From Acidobacteriota bacterium (GTDB taxonomy: Bacteria > Acidobacteriota > Thermoanaerobaculia > Thermoanaerobaculales > Sulfomarinibacteraceae), in the NCBI GenBank assembly GCA_022340665.1, contig JAJDNM010000043.1, positions 29,489 through 93,488 on the forward strand: a stretch of 64,000 nt of DNA, given 5' to 3'. The notes beneath the pieces are model-generated. The model saw only the letters and a list, made by a program, of their open reading frames with translations, ran no database searches and was not told where the DNA came from. The position numbers were made by a program, and so were the translations under genes. Each line of letters starts with the position of its first letter. The first letter of the stretch is position 1. Of the stretch, positions 6,326 through 64,000 are shown one piece after another.

Positions 6326-6627
6326 GGAGCGATTCTATCTCAGCGAGCGGCCCGCCACAGAGGCACAGAGAAACAGAGGAAGCACAGGAATGCCTGTCGA
6401 TTTTTGACGCAAAGGTGTAAATGGAAAAAGCCCCCCCATCCCTCCAGTTCGGATTTTGAATTTCGGATTTACCACCCATTGCTCCTTTGCGCTTCTGGGC
6501 GAGCGGATGGATCTGTGTCATCTGTGTGATCTGTGGGCGAATTGGGGGGCTGAGGGCCTTCGTGACGGTGTCTTCGCGGTTGCGACGGACTTCGAAGGCT
6601 CTCGCTGTGTTCTCTGTGTTTCTGTGG
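6326..6627. repeat. composite palindromic repeat element filling the xdhC-xdhB spacer
   Basis: ccacagaggcacagagaaacagagg faces ctgtgtcatctgtgtgatctgtggg and ctgtgttctctgtgtttctgtgg. gacgcaaagg faces cctttgcgc. cccccccatccctcc faces gaattgggggg. The centre is a heptamer block, ttcggattttgaatttcggattt (6448-6470). Confidence 0.75.
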
Positions 6628-8913
6628 TTATTCGATCGATGGATGTGGCCCGATCTCTGAATGGTTGTGGTCACCATGAAGGAACATGAGGACCTTTTCG
6701 GGCGTCATTGGCGCATCGAAGAAGGGCTCGCGGTCGGGGCGGAAGGCGGACATGGCGTCGAGAAGAGCGAAGTACGCGCCGATGCCGTACATGAGCGGCG
6801 GTTCTCCGATCGCCTTGGAGTGCATGACCGCATTGGGGTTGTCCGCGTCTTCGAGGAAGTGGCCTTCGATTTCCGGAGCGGAATAGATGTCAGGTATCTT
6901 GTAGGTGCTGAGGGTGTCGGCGAGGTTGCGGCCGTCAGCGAGCACCAGCTCCTCCATCGTCATCCAGCCGATGCCCTGGACCAGCCCGCCCTCGAGCTGT
7001 CCCGTGTCGACCGTGGGGTCGAGGCTTCGGCCGGCATCGTGAACGATCGAGACTCGATCGACGGTGTAGATACCCCTGAGACAGTCGACCGTTACCTCGA
7101 TGGCCGCGCTGCCGTACACGTGGTACGCGAACGGCTCGCCCTTCCCGGTGGTGCGGTCGAAATGGAGCTTTGGCGTTGCGTAGTGGGCCTGCGCGGAAAG
7201 GCTGACCCGGTTGAAATACGCCTTCGTGACCAGCTCGTCCCACGCCAGCCCGGTCGCGGAATCGTCAACGGTGACATCGCCGTCGACAATTTTGACCCGT
7301 TCAGGTTCGACCTCGAGGCTTTCCGCAGCTACGGCGCACAAACGGGCGACGATCGTCCGACAGGCGATCTCGGTGGCCTTTCCGTTCATGTCCGCGCCGG
7401 AGCTGGCGGCGGTAGGGGAGGTGTTGGCGACTCGAAGTGTATTGGTGGTTTCTATGGCGATGAGTGCGGGATCGATGCCGAGGGCGTGAGCGGCGACGTT
7501 GGTTATCTTGGCGTTGACGCCCTGTCCCATCTCCACCGCGCCAGTGCTGACGCTCACGCTGCCGTCGGTGTAGACGTGGACCAGCGCTGCCGCTTGGTTG
7601 AGAAAGGCGGAGGTGAATGAGATGCCGAAACAGACCGGCATCATCGAGAGGCCTTTCTTGACCACTCGGTTGTTCCGGTTGAAGGTGTCGATTTCGGTCC
7701 GTCGAGCAGCGATGTCGAACCGGCTCTCGGTTTCGGCAAAAGCGCGGCGGGCATGGTCCTGTTGCGCTTTCATACCGTATGGAAAGACCTCGCCCTTCGC
7801 GATCAGATTGATCTTCTGAATCTCCATGCGATCGATACCCATCACATCGGCGGCGCGAGCGATCGCCGATTCCATCACGAACATCGCCTGCGGCGCTCCG
7901 AAACCTCTGAAGGCGGTAAACGGTGGAAGGTTCGTCCGACAGCTCATCGCGGTGACGCGTACGTTGGGCACGAAGTAGCTGCCGGTTGCATGGAACAGGC
8001 TGCGCTCGAGGATGGCAGGGGAGAGATCGGCGGCCGCGCCGGCGTTCTGGAAAAAGGTCGCTTCGTAGGCCAGAATCCTGCCGTTTTCCGCGAGGCCGAT
8101 CTTGTAGTCCGACGTGTACGGGTGACGCTTTCCGGTCATCCGCATGTCTTCGATACGGGAGAGCGCGATACGAACCGGCCTTTTGAGAGAGAAGGCTGCC
8201 AACGCTGCGATTGCCGCCCACGGCGTCGCCTGGTCCTCCTTTCCGCCGAACGCCCCACCGAGGCGTGCAACGTCGACCTCGATATCATTCATCGAAAGTC
8301 CGAGCACCCGTGCCGTGATCCGTTGCACGGCGGTCGGCGCCTGGGTGGATGAGATGATCCTGAGGCGATTCCCCTCCTGAGGCAGGACCAAAGCGCCTTG
8401 CGGTTCAAGGTAGAGGTGTTCCTGGCCGCCGGAGTCGGCGCGACCCTCGATGACGAAATCGCACGACGCCCAGGTTTCCTCGACCGCGCCGAGCGAGAAG
8501 GTGCGTGAGGGCACGATCAGGGATCCGGCCGCGGCGGCCTCCCTGGGATCGAAGACGCCGGCAAGCTCCTCGAACTCTATTTCGATCGCCGCTGCAGCTC
8601 GACGCGCGGTGGCGGGGTCGTCTGCGACCACGACCACGATCGGTTGGCCCCTGAAGTGGACCAAACCTTCAGCCAGAAGAGGCTCGTCCTGGACGATTCC
8701 CCCGATCTGGTTTTCGCCGGGGATGTCGGCGGCTGTCAAAATGCACGCAACGCCTTCTACCGTTGCTGCCGGCGAGGTATCCAGACGAACGATCCTACCG
8801 TGCGGGATCGGCGAGGCCAGGACCGCTGCATGCTGCACGCCCGGCGGGTCTGGCAAATCGCCGACGAACAGCGACTCGCCGCGGGTGTGCGGGCCGATCT
8901 CGAAATTGCTCAT
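6628..8913 (-). CDS. xdhB: xanthine dehydrogenase family, molybdopterin-binding large subunit
   Basis: 761 aa. Motifs: FVGDLP...HAAVLASPIPHGRI, GGAFGGKED, FRGFGAPQ. It has a 4-nt overlap with the xdhA-like gene. Confidence 0.85.
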   Translation of the reverse strand: MSNFEIGPHTRGESLFVGDLPDPPGVQHAAVLASPIPHGRIVRLDTSPAATVEGVACILTAADIPGENQIGGIVQDEPLLAEGLVHFRGQPIVVVVADDPATARRAAAAIEIEFEELAGVFDPREAAAAGSLIVPSRTFSLGAVEETWASCDFVIEGRADSGGQEHLYLEPQGALVLPQEGNRLRIISSTQAPTAVQRITARVLGLSMNDIEVDVARLGGAFGGKEDQATPWAAIAALAAFSLKRPVRIALSRIEDMRMTGKRHPYTSDYKIGLAENGRILAYEATFFQNAGAAADLSPAILERSLFHATGSYFVPNVRVTAMSCRTNLPPFTAFRGFGAPQAMFVMESAIARAADVMGIDRMEIQKINLIAKGEVFPYGMKAQQDHARRAFAETESRFDIAARRTEIDTFNRNNRVVKKGLSMMPVCFGISFTSAFLNQAAALVHVYTDGSVSVSTGAVEMGQGVNAKITNVAAHALGIDPALIAIETTNTLRVANTSPTAASSGADMNGKATEIACRTIVARLCAVAAESLEVEPERVKIVDGDVTVDDSATGLAWDELVTKAYFNRVSLSAQAHYATPKLHFDRTTGKGEPFAYHVYGSAAIEVTVDCLRGIYTVDRVSIVHDAGRSLDPTVDTGQLEGGLVQGIGWMTMEELVLADGRNLADTLSTYKIPDIYSAPEIEGHFLEDADNPNAVMHSKAIGEPPLMYGIGAYFALLDAMSAFRPDREPFFDAPMTPEKVLMFLHGDHNHSEIGPHPSIE

Positions 8914-24583: not shown

Positions 24584-24678
24584 CGTGTTTCCCAGGTGTG
24601 GAACACCGCGCAACGAGCGGATCTTCCATGAGATGTGTTGGTCGGTGGTGAAGGATACCACCCTCGATCCGAGATTCT

Positions 24679-24754
24679 CGATACTGGATACTCGATACTC
24701 GTCTTCTGATCCCACGGGTAGGTGAACGGATCGAGCGTCGAGCATCCAGCATCG
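24679..24754. repeat. ATCCAGC-type hairpin between the dnaE2 stop and the macA-like start
   Basis: Arms cgatactggatactcg (24679-24694) and cgagcatccagcatcg (24739-24754). This gives a 16-bp helix with two A-C mismatches on the plus strand, which are two G-U wobbles on the minus (transcribed) strand. Confidence 0.75.
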
Positions 24755-24768
24755 GGTGGGTGGAGGGA

Positions 24769-27700
24769 TCAGTGGAAGTCATGACTCGTCACCGCCACAT
24801 CCGCGTGGACTGCTTCAAAACGCCGTGCGCGCACCGAAATCGTTCCGTCCTGCTTCTGCAGGGTCCCCTCGACCAGTAACACCGGGGTCGAGACGATGAA
24901 GGCGCGCTGTTCCCGAAAAAGATCCGGACGGATGATGGTCTGCATCATGCCGGTCTCGTCCTCCATGGTCAGGAAGACGAAGCCCTTGGCGGTGCCCGGC
25001 CGCTGGCGCACGATCACCGCACCTGCCACCCGCACCGATTCGCCGTCCCCGTGTTTTTCGAGCTCCGCGACCGGCACCACCCCGCGGCGGTCGAGCTCTT
25101 GCCGTACGTAGGCCATCAGATGCGGACCGGTGGTGAGGTGGAGCCCGGCGTAGTCGGCAACGGTCTCGTCGAGCGGCATCATCTCTTCGAGGGGTGAGGT
25201 GGGCTCGGGCGGTAGATCGGCAAAGAGCGGGCCGCGGCGTCCTGCCACCTCGGAGACCTGCCACAGGGCCACCCTCCGGCTCAGCCCGAGCGAGGCGAGG
25301 GCGCCGACGTGGGCCAGACGCTCGAGCTGCTCGGACGACAGGTCGCAGCGCTGGGCGAGGTCGGCCGTGTCGGCGAACGGCGCCCGGTCCCTCTCCTGCT
25401 CGATGGTGTCGGCGGCGGCCCGCTTCAGACCGTGCACGTAGCGCAGGCCGATGCGCACCGCCTCGTCCTCCCAACGGCAGCGCCAGCCGGAACGGTTGAC
25501 GTCGACCGAGAGGAAGCGTACCCCGCGGCGCTGGCCGTCCTTGACCAGGGTGGCGGGGTGATAGAAGCCCATCGGCCAGGCGTTGAGGAGGCAGGCGTAG
25601 AAGGCGGTCGGATGGTGGGTCTTGAGATAGGCGGAGGCGTAGACCAGGAGGGCGAAGCTGGCGGAGTGGGACTCGGGGAAGCCGTAGAGCGCGAAGGAGG
25701 TGATCGAGCGCACGATCTGCTCCTGGACATCGCCGGTGATGCCGCGCTCGGTCATGCCGCTGCGCAGCCTTTTCTCGATGATTGCCATCCGCTCCTGCGA
25801 GCGCTTGAAGCCCATCGCCCGTCGCAGCTCCTCGGCCTCGCCGCCGGAGAAGCCGGCCGCCTCCATCGCCATGCGCAGGAGCTGCTCCTGGAAGAGCGGC
25901 ACGCCGAGGGTGCGCTCGAGGATCGGCTCCAGGCACGGGTGGGCGTAGGTCACCGCCTCGCGGCCCTGGCGGCGCTCGAGGTAGGGATTGGTCATGTTGC
26001 CGGTGATCGGTCCGGGACGGATGATCGCGACCTGCACCACCAGGTCGTAGAAGTTTTCGGGGTTGTTGCGTGGCAGCGACGCCATCTGCGCCCGGCTCTC
26101 GATCTGGAAGACGCCGGCGGTATCGGCGCGGCGGATGAGGTCGTAGGTCTTCGGGTCGCCCGGCGGGAGGTGGGCGAGGTCGATCTCGACCCTCTCGTGG
26201 GTTCGGATCATGGGGATCGCCTCCTCGAGGGCGGCCATCATGCCGAGGCCGAGGAGGTCGACCTTGATCAGGCCGAGGTCGGCGCAATCGTCCTTGTCCC
26301 ACTGGATCACCGTCCGCTTCTCCATCGCCGCCGGTTCCATCGGAACCACCTCGTCGAGCCGGCCCTGGGCGATGACCATGCCGCCGGAGTGCTGGCCGAG
26401 GTGGCGGGGGAGGTGGTGGATCTCCCACCACAGGCGCTTGAAGTGTTCGACCCGGTGCGAGGAAGGGTCGAGACCGACTGCGGCCAGCTCGCGGTCAAGG
26501 TCGCGCGCCCCCTCCTTGACCTCCATCGACATGTGGCGGCCGAAGCGCTTGGAGATGCGATCCACCTGCTCGAGCGAGAAACCGAGAGCCTTGCCGACCT
26601 CGCGTGCCGCCGAGCGGGCCCGGTAGGTAATTACGTTGGCGGTCATCGCGGCGCCGTGTGGGCCGTAGCGCTGGTAGACGTACTGGATGACCTTCTCACG
26701 CTGGTCGCCGGAGGGCAGATCGAGGTCGATGTCCGGCCACTCGCCGCGCTCCTCGGAGAGGAAGCGCTCGAAGAGGAGCTCCATCTTGACCGGATCGACG
26801 GCGGTGATCGAGAGCGCGTAACAGACCGCCGAATTGGCGGCCGAGCCGCGCCCCTGAGCCATGATGCCTTCACGTTGACAGAAGCGGACGATGTCCCAGA
26901 CGATGAGAAAGTAGCCCGCCAGTTCGAGTTTTTCGATCAGGTCGAGCTCCTTTTCGAGCTGCGCCTGAGCACGTGCGGTCAGCGGGCGGAACCGGGTGCG
27001 GGCGCCGTCCCAGGTTACCCGCCGAAGGTGGGCGATGGGGCTTTCGCCGACCGGCAGGGGGTAGTCGGGGAAGCGGTAGCCGAGGTGGTCGAGGGTGAAC
27101 TCGAGCTCGTCGGCCAGCGCCGTGGTCGCGGCCACCGCCCGCCGCTGATCGGCGAAGAGCATCTCCATTTCGCGTGGCGAGCGAAGGTGGTGTTCGCGAC
27201 CGCCCTCGAGCAGGCGGCCTGCGGTGTCGAGCGTGAGGCCCTCGCGGATGCAGCCGAGCACATCGGCGAGGTCTCGGTTTTCAGGCCGCGCGTAGCGCAC
27301 CCCTCCGGTCGCCACCAGCGGCAGCCGCAGGCTCTGCGCGAGACCGACGAGGGCCTGGTTGCGGTGCTCCTCGGAGCGCAGCCGGTGTCGCTGCAGTTCG
27401 ACATGCAGTCGGTTGGGGAAAATATGGTGGAGGTGCTGAAGCTCGCGTTTGGTGGCGTCGAGACCCCGGTGGACGAGGCGCTGCACGATGACTCCTTCGG
27501 CGCCGCCGGTGAGGCAGAGAAGACCGTCGGCGTGAGCCTCTATCTGTCGCCAGCCGGCACGCGCCTTGCCCTTGGGACGACCACGTGCCGCTTCGGTCAG
27601 CAGCCGGCAGAGGTTGCGATAGCCGCGCTGGTCGCATGCGAGCAGGGTCAGCCGGGGCAGCGGCGTTCCTGGAGGGGGAGGGTCGGGGACGAGGCCCAAA

Positions 27701-28047
27701 GGACCACTCAATTTTGAGTTTTGAATTTTGAATTTTGAATTTTGAATTTCCGCCCCACCACCTCTATCACCGGGGGAATGGGTGGGAATTCCTAATTCCT
27801 CATTCCTCATTCCTAATTCCCCAAATTCCGAATTCTCGTCGAGGACGACCTCCGCGCCAACCAGCGGTTTGATGCCTGCTTCCTTTGCCGCCTTCCAGAA
27901 ACGCGGCGCGCCGGAGACCGTGTTGCGGTCGACCAGCGCCACTGCGGGCAGCCCGAGCTCGGCCGCACGTTCGACGAGGTCCTCGGGCTGTGATGCTCCC
28001 TCCAGGAACGAGAACGCCGAAGCGCAGCGCAGCTCCACATAGCTCAT
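24769..28047 (-). CDS. dnaE2: error-prone DNA polymerase DnaE2/ImuC
   Basis: Canonical N-terminus MSYVELRCASAFSFLEGAS (PHP domain) preceded by a GGAGA Shine-Dalgarno sequence. Pol III alpha core motifs run throughout, and an OB-fold C-terminus follows. Contains an in-frame repeat-derived insertion (residues ~71-130). The 1214-aa ORF in the track is an artefactual 5' extension through a stop-free repeat. Confidence 0.9.
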   Translation of the reverse strand: MSYVELRCASAFSFLEGASQPEDLVERAAELGLPAVALVDRNTVSGAPRFWKAAKEAGIKPLVGAEVVLDENSEFGELGMRNEELGIPTHSPGDRGGGAEIQNSKFKIQNSKLSGPLGLVPDPPPPGTPLPRLTLLACDQRGYRNLCRLLTEAARGRPKGKARAGWRQIEAHADGLLCLTGGAEGVIVQRLVHRGLDATKRELQHLHHIFPNRLHVELQRHRLRSEEHRNQALVGLAQSLRLPLVATGGVRYARPENRDLADVLGCIREGLTLDTAGRLLEGGREHHLRSPREMEMLFADQRRAVAATTALADELEFTLDHLGYRFPDYPLPVGESPIAHLRRVTWDGARTRFRPLTARAQAQLEKELDLIEKLELAGYFLIVWDIVRFCQREGIMAQGRGSAANSAVCYALSITAVDPVKMELLFERFLSEERGEWPDIDLDLPSGDQREKVIQYVYQRYGPHGAAMTANVITYRARSAAREVGKALGFSLEQVDRISKRFGRHMSMEVKEGARDLDRELAAVGLDPSSHRVEHFKRLWWEIHHLPRHLGQHSGGMVIAQGRLDEVVPMEPAAMEKRTVIQWDKDDCADLGLIKVDLLGLGMMAALEEAIPMIRTHERVEIDLAHLPPGDPKTYDLIRRADTAGVFQIESRAQMASLPRNNPENFYDLVVQVAIIRPGPITGNMTNPYLERRQGREAVTYAHPCLEPILERTLGVPLFQEQLLRMAMEAAGFSGGEAEELRRAMGFKRSQERMAIIEKRLRSGMTERGITGDVQEQIVRSITSFALYGFPESHSASFALLVYASAYLKTHHPTAFYACLLNAWPMGFYHPATLVKDGQRRGVRFLSVDVNRSGWRCRWEDEAVRIGLRYVHGLKRAAADTIEQERDRAPFADTADLAQRCDLSSEQLERLAHVGALASLGLSRRVALWQVSEVAGRRGPLFADLPPEPTSPLEEMMPLDETVADYAGLHLTTGPHLMAYVRQELDRRGVVPVAELEKHGDGESVRVAGAVIVRQRPGTAKGFVFLTMEDETGMMQTIIRPDLFREQRAFIVSTPVLLVEGTLQKQDGTISVRARRFEAVHADVAVTSHDFH
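27709..27835. repeat. modular repeat (GAATTTT array, CCCACC/GGTGGG core, AATTCCT/CATTCCT array) lying inside the dnaE2 coding sequence
   Basis: caattttgagttttgaattttgaattttgaatttcc gccccaccacctctatcaccgggggaatgggtggg aattcctaattcctcattcctcattcctaattcc. Confidence 0.85.
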
Positions 28048-28345
28048 TCGACGGTCTCCGAATTTCGACGAATGAGCGACCACAGAGACACAGAGACACA
28101 GAGGGGAACACAGAGAAGAAAACGCAGAGGCGCGGAGGCGCAGAGGTGCAGAGCCGCCGACCCACCCGAGAACCGCAAAAAACGCAAAGAGATCGATGCT
28201 GAGCTTGATGCGTGGATCCGCCTCTCTTCTCTTTCGTTGCGGGTGGGTGGGCTTTTTGATTTCTTGGTGTCTTGGTGCCTCTGTGGTTTGTCCCCGGGTG
28301 GGTGAGGAGCAAATCCGAAATCCGAAATCTGAAATCCGAAATTCA
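28048..28345. repeat. 298-bp imperfect long palindrome filling the imuB-dnaE2 spacer
   Basis: ccacagagacacagagacacagagg (28079-) faces ggtgtcttggtgcctctgtgg (28266-). cccacccgagaaccgcaaaaaacgcaaagag (28161-) faces ctctttcgttgcgggtgggtggg (28229-). ccgaatttcg (28058-) faces (aaatccg)x4 (28311-28344). Confidence 0.8.
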
Positions 28346-29980
28346 TCAGTCGTACATGCCGTCGGCGAACCACTCGCCGCTCGTGCGATCCAGATAGATG
28401 CGATACAACCCACCGCCGGAGAGCTCTACATCCCAGTAGTCACGCTCGACGGGCTGATCGCTCCACCACCCATCCTCGAGGGTCCACGGACCCGCCGCCA
28501 CGCGCACCAGGCCCTGAATCCTTGGCGTCGCTCCCGGCTCCGAGGCGAGCGAAACGAGCCGCAAAGCGGAATTTTGAATTTTGAATTTTGAATTTTGAAT
28601 TCCCACCCGCTCCCCCTCCTCTGCAACGTGAGAGTTCCTGGGGTGGGGTGGGGGGTATCGAGCATCCAGCATCGAGCATCCAGCATCTGAAGCGTTCTCG
28701 CTTATCACTTCAAGAGGCACTGGTGGCCGCAAGACCCTGACAACCAAAAGCCCCCTTCCTCGCCGTGGTGGCTGCCGCAGCTTCGGTGCCGGGGGCGGGT
28801 CGAAGGGCGCGGTCCGGTAACGTTCGGGCAGGTGGCCGTCGAGGGAGCGCGGCGAGCCAACGTGCTCGGGGCCGATGCGGGCGGCGAGATGGGCGAGAGT
28901 TCCGGCGAGCTTGTCGGGGTGGATCTCCGGTCCGCCGAAGAGCGTGAGCTGGCCGCGTCGCGGGCGGTCCGGGTGGGTGATCGAAGTGAAGGAAATCACC
29001 GGCGCCCGTGGTGGTTTCGACTCGAGCTCGAGGCGGGTCAGGGCCAGCAGCGCATCGACGTCCCGGGTCGGAGCGGGAAGGCGAATGCGGCGATGCTCGG
29101 CGCCCTCCGGCTCGAGGCCGAGCTCGAGCTCGAACAGGGCACAGGCTAGATCCTCGCGCTCGAGGCGCTTGCGGGTTCGCTCGAGGGACTGGCGGAGGGC
29201 GTAGAGCAGGGGATCGACGGTGACTACCGGCCACTCCAGCTCCATACCCTCGCGGAAGGTCGGCGGCGGGTGGTGGGGTGCCAATGGGCTCGCATCGATA
29301 CCGCGCGCTGCCCGGTGGGCGTTGGCGCCAGCCGGGCCGAGCCGGCTCGCCGTGCGGTCCGCCGGCAGGCGGGCGAAGTCGCCGAGGGTGCGCACGCCCC
29401 AGCGACGCAGCGTATCCATGAGGCGCCGGTCGAGGTTCAGATGGTTCAGTGGCAGGGGAGCGAGGAAGCGTGTTTCCTCACCGGTGGCAACGACCTTGGG
29501 CGAATCGGGCATGCGGGCGGCAATGCGGGCGGCGAGCTTGTTGCCGGCAATACCGACCCGTACCGGCAGGTCGAGGGCTTCGGCGGCGACGATCGTGGCC
29601 TGCCCCATGTCGCGTTCACCGGACTCCCCTTCGAAGAGACGTTCCATGCCACTGACATCGGCATAGACGATGTCCGGAGCGGCGTCCTCGACCCGGGGCG
29701 AGAGGCCGGTCGCGGTCTCGACCATGGCCTCGTGAGCCGAGGCCTCGCACGACACGTCGCGTCCGCGGGCGATCAGCGACGGCAGGATGCCACGTGCCTG
29801 GGCGAGGCTCATGCCGAAACGCACGCCGGACTTGCGGGCGGGCCGCGACGCGCCGATGACGCGCGCCGCCGATCCGTTGCCCTCGCACACCGCCACCGCC
29901 TCCCCGGCCAGCTCCGGCTCGGCCCGGAGTCTCGCTGCCAGCGGGAAGAGCGGGATGAAGAGGCAGGCGATTCGGGTCAT
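28346..29980 (-). CDS. imuB: ImuB, Y-family-polymerase-like mutasome subunit
   Basis: N-terminus MTRIACLFIPLFPLAARLRAEPELAGEAVAV... and C-terminus ...GPWTLEDGWWSDQPVERDYWDVEL..GGLYRIY.D..SGEWFADGMYD are both typical of ImuB. It sits between imuA and dnaE2. Contains a 45-aa repeat-derived in-frame segment. Confidence 0.8.
   Translation of the reverse strand: MTRIACLFIPLFPLAARLRAEPELAGEAVAVCEGNGSAARVIGASRPARKSGVRFGMSLAQARGILPSLIARGRDVSCEASAHEAMVETATGLSPRVEDAAPDIVYADVSGMERLFEGESGERDMGQATIVAAEALDLPVRVGIAGNKLAARIAARMPDSPKVVATGEETRFLAPLPLNHLNLDRRLMDTLRRWGVRTLGDFARLPADRTASRLGPAGANAHRAARGIDASPLAPHHPPPTFREGMELEWPVVTVDPLLYALRQSLERTRKRLEREDLACALFELELGLEPEGAEHRRIRLPAPTRDVDALLALTRLELESKPPRAPVISFTSITHPDRPRRGQLTLFGGPEIHPDKLAGTLAHLAARIGPEHVGSPRSLDGHLPERYRTAPFDPPPAPKLRQPPRRGRGLLVVRVLRPPVPLEVISENASDAGCSMLDARYPPPHPRNSHVAEEGERVGIQNSKFKIQNSALRLVSLASEPGATPRIQGLVRVAAGPWTLEDGWWSDQPVERDYWDVELSGGGLYRIYLDRTSGEWFADGMYD
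28565..28699. repeat. modular repeat (GAATTTT x4, CCCACCC/GGGGTGGGG hairpin, ATCGAGCATCCAGC x2) lying inside the imuB coding sequence
   Basis: ggaattttgaattttgaattttgaattttgaattcc (28568-28603), cccacccgctcccc...ggggtggggtgggggg (to 28655), tatcgagcatccagcatcgagcatccagcatc (28656-28687). Confidence 0.85.
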
Positions 29981-30067
29981 GAGAGATTCGAATTTTGAGT
30001 TTTGAGTTTTGAGTTTTGAGTTTTTCCCCACCTGTCCGAGAACCACAGATGCACAGAGAACACAGAG
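29981..30067. repeat. GAGTTTT heptamer array plus CCCCACC and CACAGAG blocks immediately upstream of imuB
   Basis: gaattttgagttttgagttttgagttttgagttttt ccccacctgtccgagaaccacagatgcacagagaacacagag. Confidence 0.8.
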
Positions 30068-30284
30068 TTCGCCTGCCGAAAACGAAACCGTAGATCAACG
30101 CAGATCCCCCTGCCCGTCCGGATCTCCAAGAGCCCCCTGGAGGCGGGTCCTTTAGGGCCCGCACGGCGGTCTTTGAACCGCGAAGAACGCAAAGCCCATC
30201 CGGCCACCCACCCCGCAAAGGCGCAAAGACGCAAAGGGGCAATCGTTGAGCCTGAGTGGCGGTTCCGCTCATTCAAGGCAGAAC

Positions 30285-30391
30285 GACAGGCGATCGGATC
30301 GCCTGTCACCGGCAAGAATCCTGCTCGTTCCGAATGCGAGCATTCGTTACTCGCAGTCTTCTCACCGGCCGACGTGCCCAGGGCACGTCGG
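30285..30391. repeat. three consecutive perfect palindromes/hairpins in the imuA-imuB spacer
   Basis: gacaggcgatc-g-gatcgcctgtc (30285-30307), cgaatgc-ga-gcattcg (30331-30346), ccgacgtgcc-cag-ggcacgtcgg (30369-30391). Confidence 0.8.
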
Positions 30392-30516
30392 TTCTGCCTC
30401 TGTGGTTCTACGAACATCGAAATCACACGCAGAAGGCAAGCACCAGGAAGCAGAACCCGAAGAGCAACCACCCGCATGCTTCACCGGCGAGTTCGAAAAC
30501 ACTGCGAACGCTCATC

Positions 30517-31365
30517 TCAAACGGTTGCGACATTTTTCCTCCCTTCGGTCGGAATTTCGGATTTCGGATTTCGGATTTCGGATTTTTGTTCAGCACTCAA
30601 GTTGTTCAGTACTATTGGCCCGAAGCTTGCTTCGGGAAGCGTGAGGAAGTTGGCGGCCTCGCCGAGGTCCGTGTGGCCGATCCGCTTGCTGAGGTGCAGT
30701 CGCGCGCGAAGTCCGGAGAGGAGGCGGGAAGCGCCGCCACGACGCCAGTCGCCACGTCCGCGGCAGGCCGTCACCACCACACCGGCGGCGCAGCCGCTCA
30801 GCCGGTAGGGCGAGCCCACCAGCACCACCGCCTGGTGGTTGGCGGCGTTGCGCGCGAGCCGCAGCCAGGCGGCCAAAGGCGCGCGGCCTCTAACTGGAGG
30901 CAAACCGAGATCGAGAGCCACCAGCGGGAAGCCCGTATGGACCAGCAGTTCGGCGGCGGCCACGGAGTCGCCGAGATTCCGCGGCCGCAACCACAGCAGG
31001 TGTTCGAGGTCGACTCCGATCTCTGCCGCTGCCTGCGGATCGAGCTGTGCACCCTGATCGACGAGGGCGGCCACTTCGCCGGCACCGGTCACTGCCCGCA
31101 GGGTCGCCAGGAGAGCGGCGAAGCGACCGCAGGAGCCCCTGCCCACGAGTTCCACCATCTCGCCCCGAGGCAGACCGCCGTCGAGCAGGTGATCGAGACC
31201 GGCCAGCGAGGTGGGGAGGGGCTCTTCACGAAGGGTCGCGCGCCGCTCGCGGATGAGGTCGGAGGCTCGATGGAGGGTATGGCGGAGCTCGTCTGGAAGC
31301 TCGAAGCTCTTGGTCTGCAAGGCTTTGCGTGGTGCCAGTTCAGGTTTTTGCCGGGCCACCGCCAT
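30517..31365 (-). CDS. imuA: ImuA (RecA/SulA-fold mutasome protein)
   Basis: LPTSLAGLDHLLDGGLPRGEMVELVG...AALVD...LLWLRP...LVALDL matches the ImuA/SulA-like pattern. Start is the ATG at 31365, preceded by AGGAGGG. The last ~30 codons (..SAEQKSEIRNPKSEIPTEGRKNVATV) are read from a heptamer repeat array. Confidence 0.7.
   Translation of the reverse strand: MAVARQKPELAPRKALQTKSFELPDELRHTLHRASDLIRERRATLREEPLPTSLAGLDHLLDGGLPRGEMVELVGRGSCGRFAALLATLRAVTGAGEVAALVDQGAQLDPQAAAEIGVDLEHLLWLRPRNLGDSVAAAELLVHTGFPLVALDLGLPPVRGRAPLAAWLRLARNAANHQAVVLVGSPYRLSGCAAGVVVTACRGRGDWRRGGASRLLSGLRARLHLSKRIGHTDLGEAANFLTLPEASFGPIVLNNLSAEQKSEIRNPKSEIPTEGRKNVATV
30548..30586. repeat. CGGATTT heptamer array, overlapping the 3' end of imuA
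   Basis: tcggaatttcggatttcggatttcggatttcggattttt. On the minus strand it is translated as KSEIRNPKSEI in the imuA tail. Confidence 0.85.
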
Positions 31366-31430: not shown

Positions 31431-31513
31431 GTTTCGGATTTCGGATTTTCCACCCACACCTCCCGCAGAACCGGGGGGGGTGGTGGGAATTCAAAATTGA
31501 GAATTCAAAATTC
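31431..31513. repeat. modular repeat (CGGATTT array, CCACCC/GGTGGG core, AAAATTC array) between the imuA and blaI promoters
   Basis: gtttcggatttcggattttcc acccacacctcccgcagaaccggggggggtggtggg aattcaaaattgagaattcaaaattc. Confidence 0.8.
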
Positions 31514-45713: not shown

Positions 45714-46480
45714 AGCTGACGCTGCATGTTTGGCGGCAGAAGGACACCCAGGGCAAGGGCGGCTTCGAGACCTATGAGCTCGAGGATGTCAGCACTCACA
45801 TGTCGTTCCTCGAGATGCTCGACGTGCTGAACCAGGACCTGATCACCAAAGGGGAAGAACCGATCACGTTCGAGCATGACTGCCGCGAGGGGATCTGCGG
45901 GGCGTGCGGTTTCGTAGTCAACGGCGTCGCACACGGCCACCAAAAGGGGAGTACCGTATGTCAGCTGCACATGCGGCACTTCAACGACGGTGACGAGATC
46001 ACGATCGAGCCGTGGCGCGCAAAGGCATTCCCGGTCCTCAAAGACCTGGTGGTCGATCGCTCGGCCTTCGACCGGATTATGCAGGCGGGGGGCTTCATTA
46101 CGGTCCGAACGGGCTCGGCGCCGGACGCCAACGCGATACCGATTCCGACTGACACGCTCGAGTATGCGATGGACTTCGCGGAGTGCATCGGTTGCGGAGC
46201 GTGCGTCGCCTCGTGCCCGAATGGCGCCGCGATGTTGTTTGTCGGGGCCAAAATCTCGCACCTCGGGCTGCTGCCGCAGGGTCAACCGGAAAGGGCGTCA
46301 CGTGCGCGGAGAATGGTCGAGGCGATGGAGAAGGAAGCGTTCGGCGCCTGCACCAACTACCGTTCCTGCGAGGCGGTGTGCCCGAAGGAAATCTCCATCT
46401 CCGGCATCGCCATGATGAACAAGGACTACCGTAAGGCAGCCTTCGCCGGCGCCGACGCCCCGCGAGGCAAGAAGCGGTAG
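45710..46480 (+). CDS. sdhB: succinate dehydrogenase/fumarate reductase iron-sulfur subunit
   Basis: Starts at [12 protein letters not shown] with an ATGA overlap to sdhA. Cys clusters: [32 protein letters not shown]. Confidence 0.9.
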
Positions 46481-63865: not shown

Positions 63866-64000
63866 GTAGAAAGAAGGATGGTCGAGGCAATGGAGAAGGA
63901 GGCATTCGGCGCCTGCACCAACTACCGTTCCTTCGAGGCGGTTTCCCCGAAGGGCATCTCCATATCCGGCATCGCAATGATGAACAAGGATTTCAGGCGT
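63866..64000 (+). other. diverged duplicate of the sdhB 3' end (open frame running off the window), Fe-S cysteines replaced
   Basis: 63878-63997 aligns with 46313-46432 at roughly 90 percent identity. It reads [41 protein letters not shown], against [41 protein letters not shown] in sdhB. The frame is open from 63761 to the window end. Confidence 0.6.

Follow-up and report, generated by a model that had tools for sequence, protein, structure and literature searches.

Rickettsia palindromic elements (RPEs) are dispersed palindromic repeats of ∼100–150 nt that lie in frame and free of stop codons in unrelated genes and are translated as loops, and these in-frame fusions are thought to be compatible with the fold of the host protein (PMC10969869). 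Among long simple-sequence repeats, heptamers are the commonest kind in many bacteria; most of them lie between genes, and what they do is unknown (PMC4679880; PMC4692102). Here we describe an insert that can be compared with both, a 135-nt repeat module carried in frame by imuB, a mutasome gene for DNA-damage mutagenesis, in an acidobacterium of marine sediment. The gene lies in a 64,000-nt stretch of contig JAJDNM010000043.1 (assembly GCA_022340665.1, positions 29,489 to 93,488), hereafter the window, and the ImuB homologues together with 63 related genomic loci identify the host as a Candidatus Sulfomarinibacteraceae / Thermoanaerobaculia (Acidobacteriota) sediment metagenome-assembled genome (MAG). 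We consider it fairly probable (roughly two chances in three) that the module is a selfish or neutral composite repeat which is tolerated in disordered protein loops, stays open because the domain downstream is under purifying selection, and is remodelled by slippage and gene conversion.

The imuB coding sequence (28346–29977, minus strand), taken from the list of open reading frames (ORFs) and modelled with AlphaFold, encodes 543 aa with a Pfam IMS match (1.8e-21) and 1874 ImuB homologues. The protein has a Y-family-like core, a β-clamp-type motif, QLTLF, at residues 344–348, and a C-terminal β domain (ImuB-C). The insert (28565–28699, minus strand) is in frame and stop-free, and its 45 codons, ENASDAGCSMLDARYPPPHPRNSHVAEEGERVGIQNSKFKIQNSA, stand between ..LEVIS on the N-terminal side and LRLVSLASE on the C-terminal side. 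It consists of three parts (arrays and intergenic elements are given here without strand). The left array, (GAATTTT) ×4.7 at 28569–28601, reads (AAAATTC)n on the gene strand, is open in all three phases and is translated IQNSKFKIQNS. The central G+C-rich hairpin at 28602–28652, in which CCCACCC pairs with GGGTGGG, encodes YPPPHP...EGERVG. The third part is a 7/14-nt array, (ATCGAGCATCCAGC) ×2.2 at 28657–28687, which encodes DAGCSMLDA. Both arrays had 100% matches in Tandem Repeats Finder; counted as head-to-tail 7-nt units, of which at least three make a heptanucleotide repeat, the program returned 4.7 copies at 100% and 4.4 copies at 87%. An earlier sequence-only reading of the window had described the same insert, flanks and three-part structure, and required only that its array boundaries be moved from 28568–28603 and 28656–28687 to those given above. 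Three members of the 90% cluster of the window ImuB, from NCBI, JGI and ENA assemblies, contain an identical 47-aa linker; three independent assemblies thus agree on the insert, which excludes an artefact of assembly.

The module belongs to a family of elements. Within the window, GAATTTTGAATTTT had 16 matches with up to two mismatches where 0.06 were expected by chance, and ATCGAGCATCCAGC had 4 with up to one mismatch where 0.04 were expected, which bears out the earlier argument against coincidence. The ATCGAGCATCCAGC array of imuB is also, as had been proposed, of the arm type found in the intergenic hairpins at 1683–1779 and 24663–24765: positions 28662–28687 have 88% identity to 1753–1778, and 28655–28681 show 93% complementarity to 1683–1709. 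These two hairpins are canonical members of the family, whose parts run in the order heptamer array, (C)CCACC(C) stem, loop, (G)GGTGG(G) stem and a further array, which is approximately the complement of the opening one. The member at 1683–1779 is a long hairpin whose arms, GGATGCT and GCATCCA, are complementary heptamer arrays (z −3.5 and −3.7 for 1675–1785); that at 24663–24765, just 3′ of the dnaE2 stop codon, has arms GATACTC and ATCGAGC (z −4.0 and −4.9 for 24655–24770). Folding is strong in the canonical intergenic copies and in many of the orthologous ones, and the window imuB copy retains the central hairpin alone. It is a chimeric, decayed family member, whose two arms have lost their complementarity. 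In the window, short tandem arrays with 7-, 8- and 9-nt periods form at least nine clusters, and family copies are present across the 63 related loci, where the commonest units are AAATCCG, AATTCCG, AAAACTC, AAATTCG, AATTCTC, AAAATTC and AATTAGG. Metagenome protein sets also contain standalone copies in the guise of spurious ORFs of 39–103 aa, for example MNSEFGIRNSEF...IQNSKFKIQNS. An Rfam scan of the whole window at gathering thresholds gave 0 matches, and a literature search returned no account of such elements in Acidobacteriota.

We compared the imuB insert with several known systems. Like RPEs, it belongs to a dispersed multi-copy family, lies in frame and without stops within a true gene, and occupies what is predicted to be a tolerant loop. 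The relation is one of analogy, the two being likened by mode of insertion, with no kinship of sequence expected: the present elements have heptamer-array arms that slip and swap, occur in a free-living G+C-rich acidobacterium, are concentrated in one operon and have been homogenised between two genes. The arms themselves resemble heptanucleotide simple-sequence repeats, such as the long simple-sequence repeats of Mrazek 2007, the short tandemly repeated repetitive sequences of cyanobacteria, TAACTGA of Beggiatoaceae and GGGAATC of Xanthomonas, which are mostly intergenic head-to-tail 7-nt units, typically in 3–6 copies, with stops in all frames of one orientation while the other can be read through (PMC4679880; PMC4692102). 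Here, however, the arrays form inverted pairs about a G+C-rich hairpin and so make composite palindromes, and whereas genic TAACTGA copies have been reported mostly at protein termini, the imuB and dnaE2 arrays lie inside conserved domains. Repetitive extragenic palindromic (REP) sequences, their hairpin-forming doublets (REPINs) and bacterial interspersed mosaic elements (BIMEs) are similar in being short G+C-rich hairpins, mosaic with other motifs and abundant between genes of the same operon. REPs are nevertheless extragenic by definition, and neither GTAG nor CGTC, the tetranucleotides that head the 20–40-bp palindromes of REPs and REPINs, is present on either strand of 28565–28699; nor did a RAYT gene come to light, no search having been aimed at one. 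No tRNA that might have served as an integration target was found near the insert. Contingency loci of Haemophilus and Neisseria also have coding-region repeats with a unit that is no multiple of three, but the present repeats show no on/off polymorphism in assemblies, have low copy numbers and are mainly intergenic. Hairpin-forming mobile inserts in coding sequences are known from the byp elements of yeast mitochondria and from T4 gene 60, where frame and stops are free to vary. By contrast, the inserts described here are in frame in all short-read assemblies and are built of stop-avoiding units, and because they keep the frame and avoid stops we conclude that they are translated, not bypassed.

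Alignment of 40 ImuB orthologues (62–100% identity) showed the proteins to be collinear except between LEVI(T/S)E and (L)RLVS, where a stretch of a few to ∼150 residues is made up of translated arrays and hairpin parts of the type PPTPP...SVAEGG. The array peptides include NSKFKIQNS, NSKLKTQNS, NEELGMRNEE, NSEFGIRNSEF, NPKSEIRN, NSEFLIPNS, FGFRISDF and NSQFSILNS. When the two flanks were placed independently by TBLASTN in 57 loci, 25 of them long-read, the linker measured 12–306 nt and the flanks shared a frame in all but eight (L011, L019, L020, L022, L029, L049, L053, L057). All eight are long-read loci, and every short-read assembly is in frame. We considered the frameshifted long-read inserts as phase variants and dismissed them as such, since frame breaks in these MAGs are scattered throughout imuB and dnaE2.

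In the AlphaFold model, which was built on an alignment, residues 431–471 have a predicted local distance difference test score (pLDDT) of ∼30 between confident strands at 414–429 and 473–480 (pLDDT ∼80). This pattern places the insert, as a predicted disordered loop at about residues 428–472, in a hairpin loop of the ImuB-C β domain. ImuB-C follows a RecA-NT-like motif and is a proposed DnaE2-binding module (PMC6511836). At this position the linkers of the most distant relatives (L050–52, L037/38, L033, L031) are short, 4–16 aa, and free of repeats, which indicates that the loop is naturally variable. Non-repeat linkers in orthologues, which the sequence-only reading had named as evidence against its case, thus exist in distant relatives, while within the family the loop is repeat-filled almost everywhere. 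The alignments and the model agree with its suggestion of hot spots in tolerant loops. More distant Thermoanaerobaculia (L039, L054, L043, L040, L047, L059, L041) have unrelated repeat peptides, CHPERSEGS, FDFAQGRL, PLSPRGGERVGVRG and FDFAQGRLREGS, in the same ImuB loop. Since other repeat families fill it in these intermediate lineages, the loop is a sink for whatever repeat family its genome harbours.

The insert changes much faster than the gene around it. Compared with the syntenic loci L064 and L066, the window insert is of equal length and has 66–67% identity, as against 83–84% for the 300 nt of imuB just upstream. The units of the right array (in gene orientation) have all changed in concert, being AAAATTC in the window and AAAACTC in the relatives. 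Around this array, compensating −5/+5 indels (window 28562–28702 against 11278–11419 of L064/L066) bring it into another reading phase; a frameshift can be absorbed by an array that has no stop in any frame. Among proteins that are ≥90% identical, differing left and right arm types are combined around a conserved loop, lengths vary in steps of 7 aa, equivalent to three units, as copy-number variation of a heptanucleotide repeat within ≥90% clusters, and in one case the element has been lost almost completely. Of 116 genic arrays, 109 have units that carry no stop in any phase when read in the sense orientation, versus 67 of 85 non-genic ones. In the array of the window dnaE2, GGAATTA and GGAATGA alternate exactly where either pure array would give an in-frame stop. 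Selection was seen only as keeping the frame open.

Equivalent sites are found in the other two mutasome genes. The dnaE2 coding sequence (24769–28044, minus strand; 1091 aa; Pfam PHP, DNA_pol3_alpha, finger, HHH_6 and OB) carries a sister in-frame element in its PHP domain (27706–27837, minus strand), composed of (AATTTTG) ×5.7, a CCCCACCACC..GGGTGGG hairpin and (AATTCCT) ×4.9. Its right arm is common with the imuB insert, and it encodes IQNSKFKIQNS in frame, the shared peptide to which the sequence-only reading had drawn attention. The hot spot, between GAEVVLDE and LPGPLGLVPDPPPPG, measures 23–78 aa, is array-derived in the family and is short and non-repetitive in distant relatives. The imuA′ gene (30517–31365, minus strand; RecA-like, Pfam RecA) has an array of (TCGGATT) ×5.1 at 30549–30585, translated KSEIRNPKSEI, about ten residues before the conserved ..HVAAI/NVATV C-terminus (..KSEIRNPKSEIPTEGRxxHVAAI*) in the window as well as in ten further loci (L003, L004, L005, L007, L010, L011, L019, L020, L049, L057). 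Hence all three mutasome genes hold translated arrays; the earlier count of two was right for imuB and dnaE2 but missed imuA′.

The imuB and dnaE2 inserts of one genome can resemble each other closely, with 81–88% identity over 130–190 nt, loops included, in L003 (7278–7455 versus 8065–8230), L035, L046 and L066. In the window pair (28562–28702 and 27706–27837) only the right arm and stem are common. Similarity of inserts within genomes exceeds that between genomes (permutation p ∼1e-4). This likeness indicates concerted evolution, through gene conversion or repeated replacement by whichever element is currently dominant.

Taken as a mechanism, our preferred explanation would begin with a dispersed, non-autonomous palindromic repeat that became lodged in the permissive, disordered ImuB-C loop in an ancestor of the Sulfomarinibacteraceae-like Thermoanaerobaculia. 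The element would be transcribed and translated with imuB as a hydrophilic, low-complexity loop, and its persistence would need no benefit to ImuB, for whose function it may well be neutral. Because the loop would tolerate the element, and imprecise loss would wreck the essential downstream part of ImuB-C, selection would filter only for in-frame, stop-free variants, and the element would evolve far faster than the gene. Remodelling could follow three routes: slippage of arrays by 7-nt units, the survivors being three-unit steps or compensated indels; replacement of arms; and gene conversion with sibling copies, above all the dnaE2 copy 0.5–0.85 kb away.

Several observations weigh against this explanation. 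All three operon genes bear arrays, versus no clear deep genic copy in the ∼260 kb of flanks of the 63 loci, where essentially all arrays are intergenic or at gene edges; array densities per kb are 0.64 in imuB, 0.43 in dnaE2, 0.31 in imuA and 0.5–0.8 in the spacers against 0.11–0.24 in the flanks. Such clustering is not obviously explained by pure neutrality. About half of the orthologous imuB inserts would form very stable mRNA hairpins, some of them nested, with z down to −7, and these could affect expression. Judged as a miniature inverted-repeat transposable element, the family has inverted arms in its canonical copies, and no empty-site allele or recognisable target-site duplication was seen in the relatives compared, nor was a transposase found, no search having been aimed at a partner insertion sequence; for these reasons mobility, and with it the original insertion event, is something we infer. 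Tolerance by the protein rests on predicted structure, and a search found no solved structure of ImuB-C. The clustering in mutasome genes is real but phylogenetically non-independent, and this, together with local gene conversion, weakens it as an argument against neutrality.

A rival explanation would be a post-transcriptional brake, for the sake of which the elements would be retained: hairpins and arrays within and between imuA′, imuB and dnaE2 would structure the polycistronic mRNA and keep mutasome levels low; it might work through RNase III targets, ribosome obstacles or sites for RNA-binding proteins. Seven array/hairpin clusters are present on one 6.7-kb operon, many orthologous imuB inserts form perfect stems of ≥30 bp (L005, with −102 kcal/mol and z −6.9, as well as L016, L027 and L008), and in Beggiatoaceae a role as binding sites of regulators has been proposed for heptamer arrays close to start codons (PMC4679880). 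However, the window copies fold no better than shuffled sequences, with z of −0.6 (minus strand) and −1.4 (plus strand) for imuB and −0.2 for dnaE2, and we therefore dismissed a structured RNA for the window imuB copy. Fold strength at the imuB site ranges from z ∼−0.3 to −7 among species, and left and right arm types are freely interchanged even among almost identical proteins, which show no covariation of the two. In the closest syntenic relatives, L064 and L066, the homologous inserts lack the CCCACCC/GGGTGGG hairpin, and neither the imuB nor the dnaE2 insert of the window has arms that are complementary to each other. The shuffle-level folds, non-complementary arms and missing hairpin leave a conserved RNA structure unsupported, and the role as RNA structure that the sequence-only reading had offered as one possibility is not borne out for this copy; the lack of an Rfam match likewise speaks against a brake. 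Since strong folds are found in some orthologues and none is found here, structure is a trait of fresh or canonical elements and no conserved requirement of the site. We regard such a brake as unlikely.

We judge it distinctly unlikely that the arrays form a contingency locus, whereby 7-nt slips of one or two units would shift the frame and reversibly switch ImuB, DnaE2 and ImuA′, making inducible mutagenesis phase-variable. The unit length is no multiple of three, the arrays are perfect (4.7 copies at 100%) and are found in all three genes, and elsewhere among bacteria phase variation does arise from short repeats (PMC4692102). The three-unit steps between close relatives would also mean that slippage is active and that single-unit slips must occur. 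Yet with just 4–5 units slippage rates should be modest, all short-read consensus sequences are in frame, and the frameshifted copies are confined to the long-read MAGs with breaks throughout imuB and dnaE2. The same arrays are, moreover, mostly intergenic, and a non-essential operon under LexA-type repression has no obvious need of a second switch.

Arrays of the same kind are translated in other bacteria. When metagenome contigs were scanned for exact matches to (GAATTTT)n plus junction, at least 120 loci (L068–L187) were obtained, with G+C of 0.33–0.72 and thus from many phyla. In ∼19 of the 120 listed the array lies deep in a long ORF, always translated IQNSKFKIQNS, and for ten such ORFs Pfam confirms the host gene, including LigA, MiaA, Sua5/TsaC, QueA, a HemN-like radical-SAM protein, GlnE, BshC, RlpA and a debranching enzyme. 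Examples of such contigs are L181 (1364–3871), L186, L148, L103, L154, L150 and L072. A test for over-representation of the mutasome found a dnaE2 match in 1 of the 120 loci listed, so that the array shows no general preference for mutasome genes, and translated heptamer arrays are a broad phenomenon beyond them. When a profile of the type-2 insert peptide was run against 5.8 billion proteins, it retrieved no more than 15 short ORFs and missed even the ImuB proteins from which it had been built; it is for this reason unusable as a census of genic copies. A more sweeping proposal, that heptamer-array palindromes are cross-phylum translated mobile elements which in Sulfomarinibacteraceae took over permissive loops in all three mutasome proteins, stay similar in imuB and dnaE2 through gene conversion and by 7-nt slippage make the error-prone polymerase complex phase-variable, seems to us very unlikely. 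The arrays in imuA′, the fast turnover, the homogenisation of imuB and dnaE2, and translation of the array in housekeeping genes of unrelated bacteria all go beyond what had been noted from the window.

It is highly improbable that the repeat peptides common to ImuB and DnaE2 are an adaptive linker, selected as flexible tethers or as matching motifs for interaction or condensation. Within a single genome, ImuB and DnaE2 do share these peptides, and the loops lie within the proposed DnaE2-binding domain (PMC6511836). Against this, the peptides vary almost without limit, from 4 to ∼100 aa with interchangeable arm types, unrelated families (CHPERSEGS, FDFAQGRL, PLSPRGGERVGVRG) occupy the same loop in other lineages, and the peptide recurs in housekeeping enzymes that are unrelated. 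The likeness extends to the DNA level, synonymous positions included, which argues for gene conversion and not convergence. An assembly chimera or mis-called gene is almost certainly the wrong explanation: repeats are a frequent cause of breaks and confusion in metagenome assembly, and a number of contigs indeed stop close to these genes, but the three assemblies have the same insert and more than 50 independent short- and long-read assemblies have homologous ones.

The spacers around these genes are also rich in repeats. That between imuB and dnaE2 (28081–28344) is filled with arrays of CACAGAGA, CGCAGAGG and AAATCCG (×4.6). The spacer upstream of imuB (29987–30242) has (TTTTGAG) ×4.6, CCCCACC and CACAGA/CGCAAAGG arrays, and an element upstream of imuA′ (31432–31513) consists of (TTTCGGA)n, CCACCC..GGGTGGTGGG and then (AATTCAA)n. 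A set of 8–9-nt arrays (CACAGAGA, CGCAGAGG, CGCAAAGG and complementary CTCTGTG types) stands beside heptamer arrays in spacers at 6356–6626, 28081–28157, 30040–30075 and 30214–30242. A 34-nt inverted repeat, 28311–28344 / 30552–30585, with 97% complementarity (opposed AAATCCG arrays), flanks imuB and its upstream spacer.

Many relatives have a PF05635 gene (23S rRNA intervening-sequence / four-helix-bundle, Avd-like) between imuA and imuB, at the position of the spacer upstream of imuB (L064 9587–9985, L066 9661–9987, L003, L008, L012, L014, L023, L028). These genes are always flanked by inverted hexamer arrays, (CCGTNC)n / (GNACGG)n, that reach into the C-terminus of the gene. We considered whether the arrays were arms of PF05635 cassettes and rejected this, there being no such gene in the window, where 29978–30516 lacks it, or in the 120 array-bearing metagenome loci listed. 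A small ORF encoding 36 hydrophobic residues (MSQPFEMSVRSVFELAGEACGWLLFGFCFLVLAFCV; 30423–30533, minus strand) overlaps the end of imuA′ and is conserved in L064, L066, L003 and L028. Elsewhere in the window, a 116-nt direct repeat (46310–46425 / 63875–63990; 91% identity) resembles a duplicated gene fragment, which from its translation we take to be a piece of an Fe-S subunit gene of the FrdB/SdhB type.

The locus provides a clear case outside Rickettsia of repeat DNA that is carried, translated and rapidly remodelled inside conserved enzymes. The inserts mark dispensable loops in ImuB-C, the DnaE2 PHP domain and the ImuA′ tail, which is useful for work on the structure and engineering of the mutasome, a target of research on drug resistance, and the homogenisation of the imuB and dnaE2 inserts offers a natural experiment in which gene conversion can be followed between short repeats within genes. 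In practical terms, the arrays break assemblies, inflate predicted proteins and yield spurious small ORFs, and can mislead orthology assignment and length-based quality control in acidobacterial MAGs. Were the slippage reading true, contingency switching by simple-sequence repeats would bear on how mutagenesis itself is controlled, and mutability would have a switch that is itself mutable.

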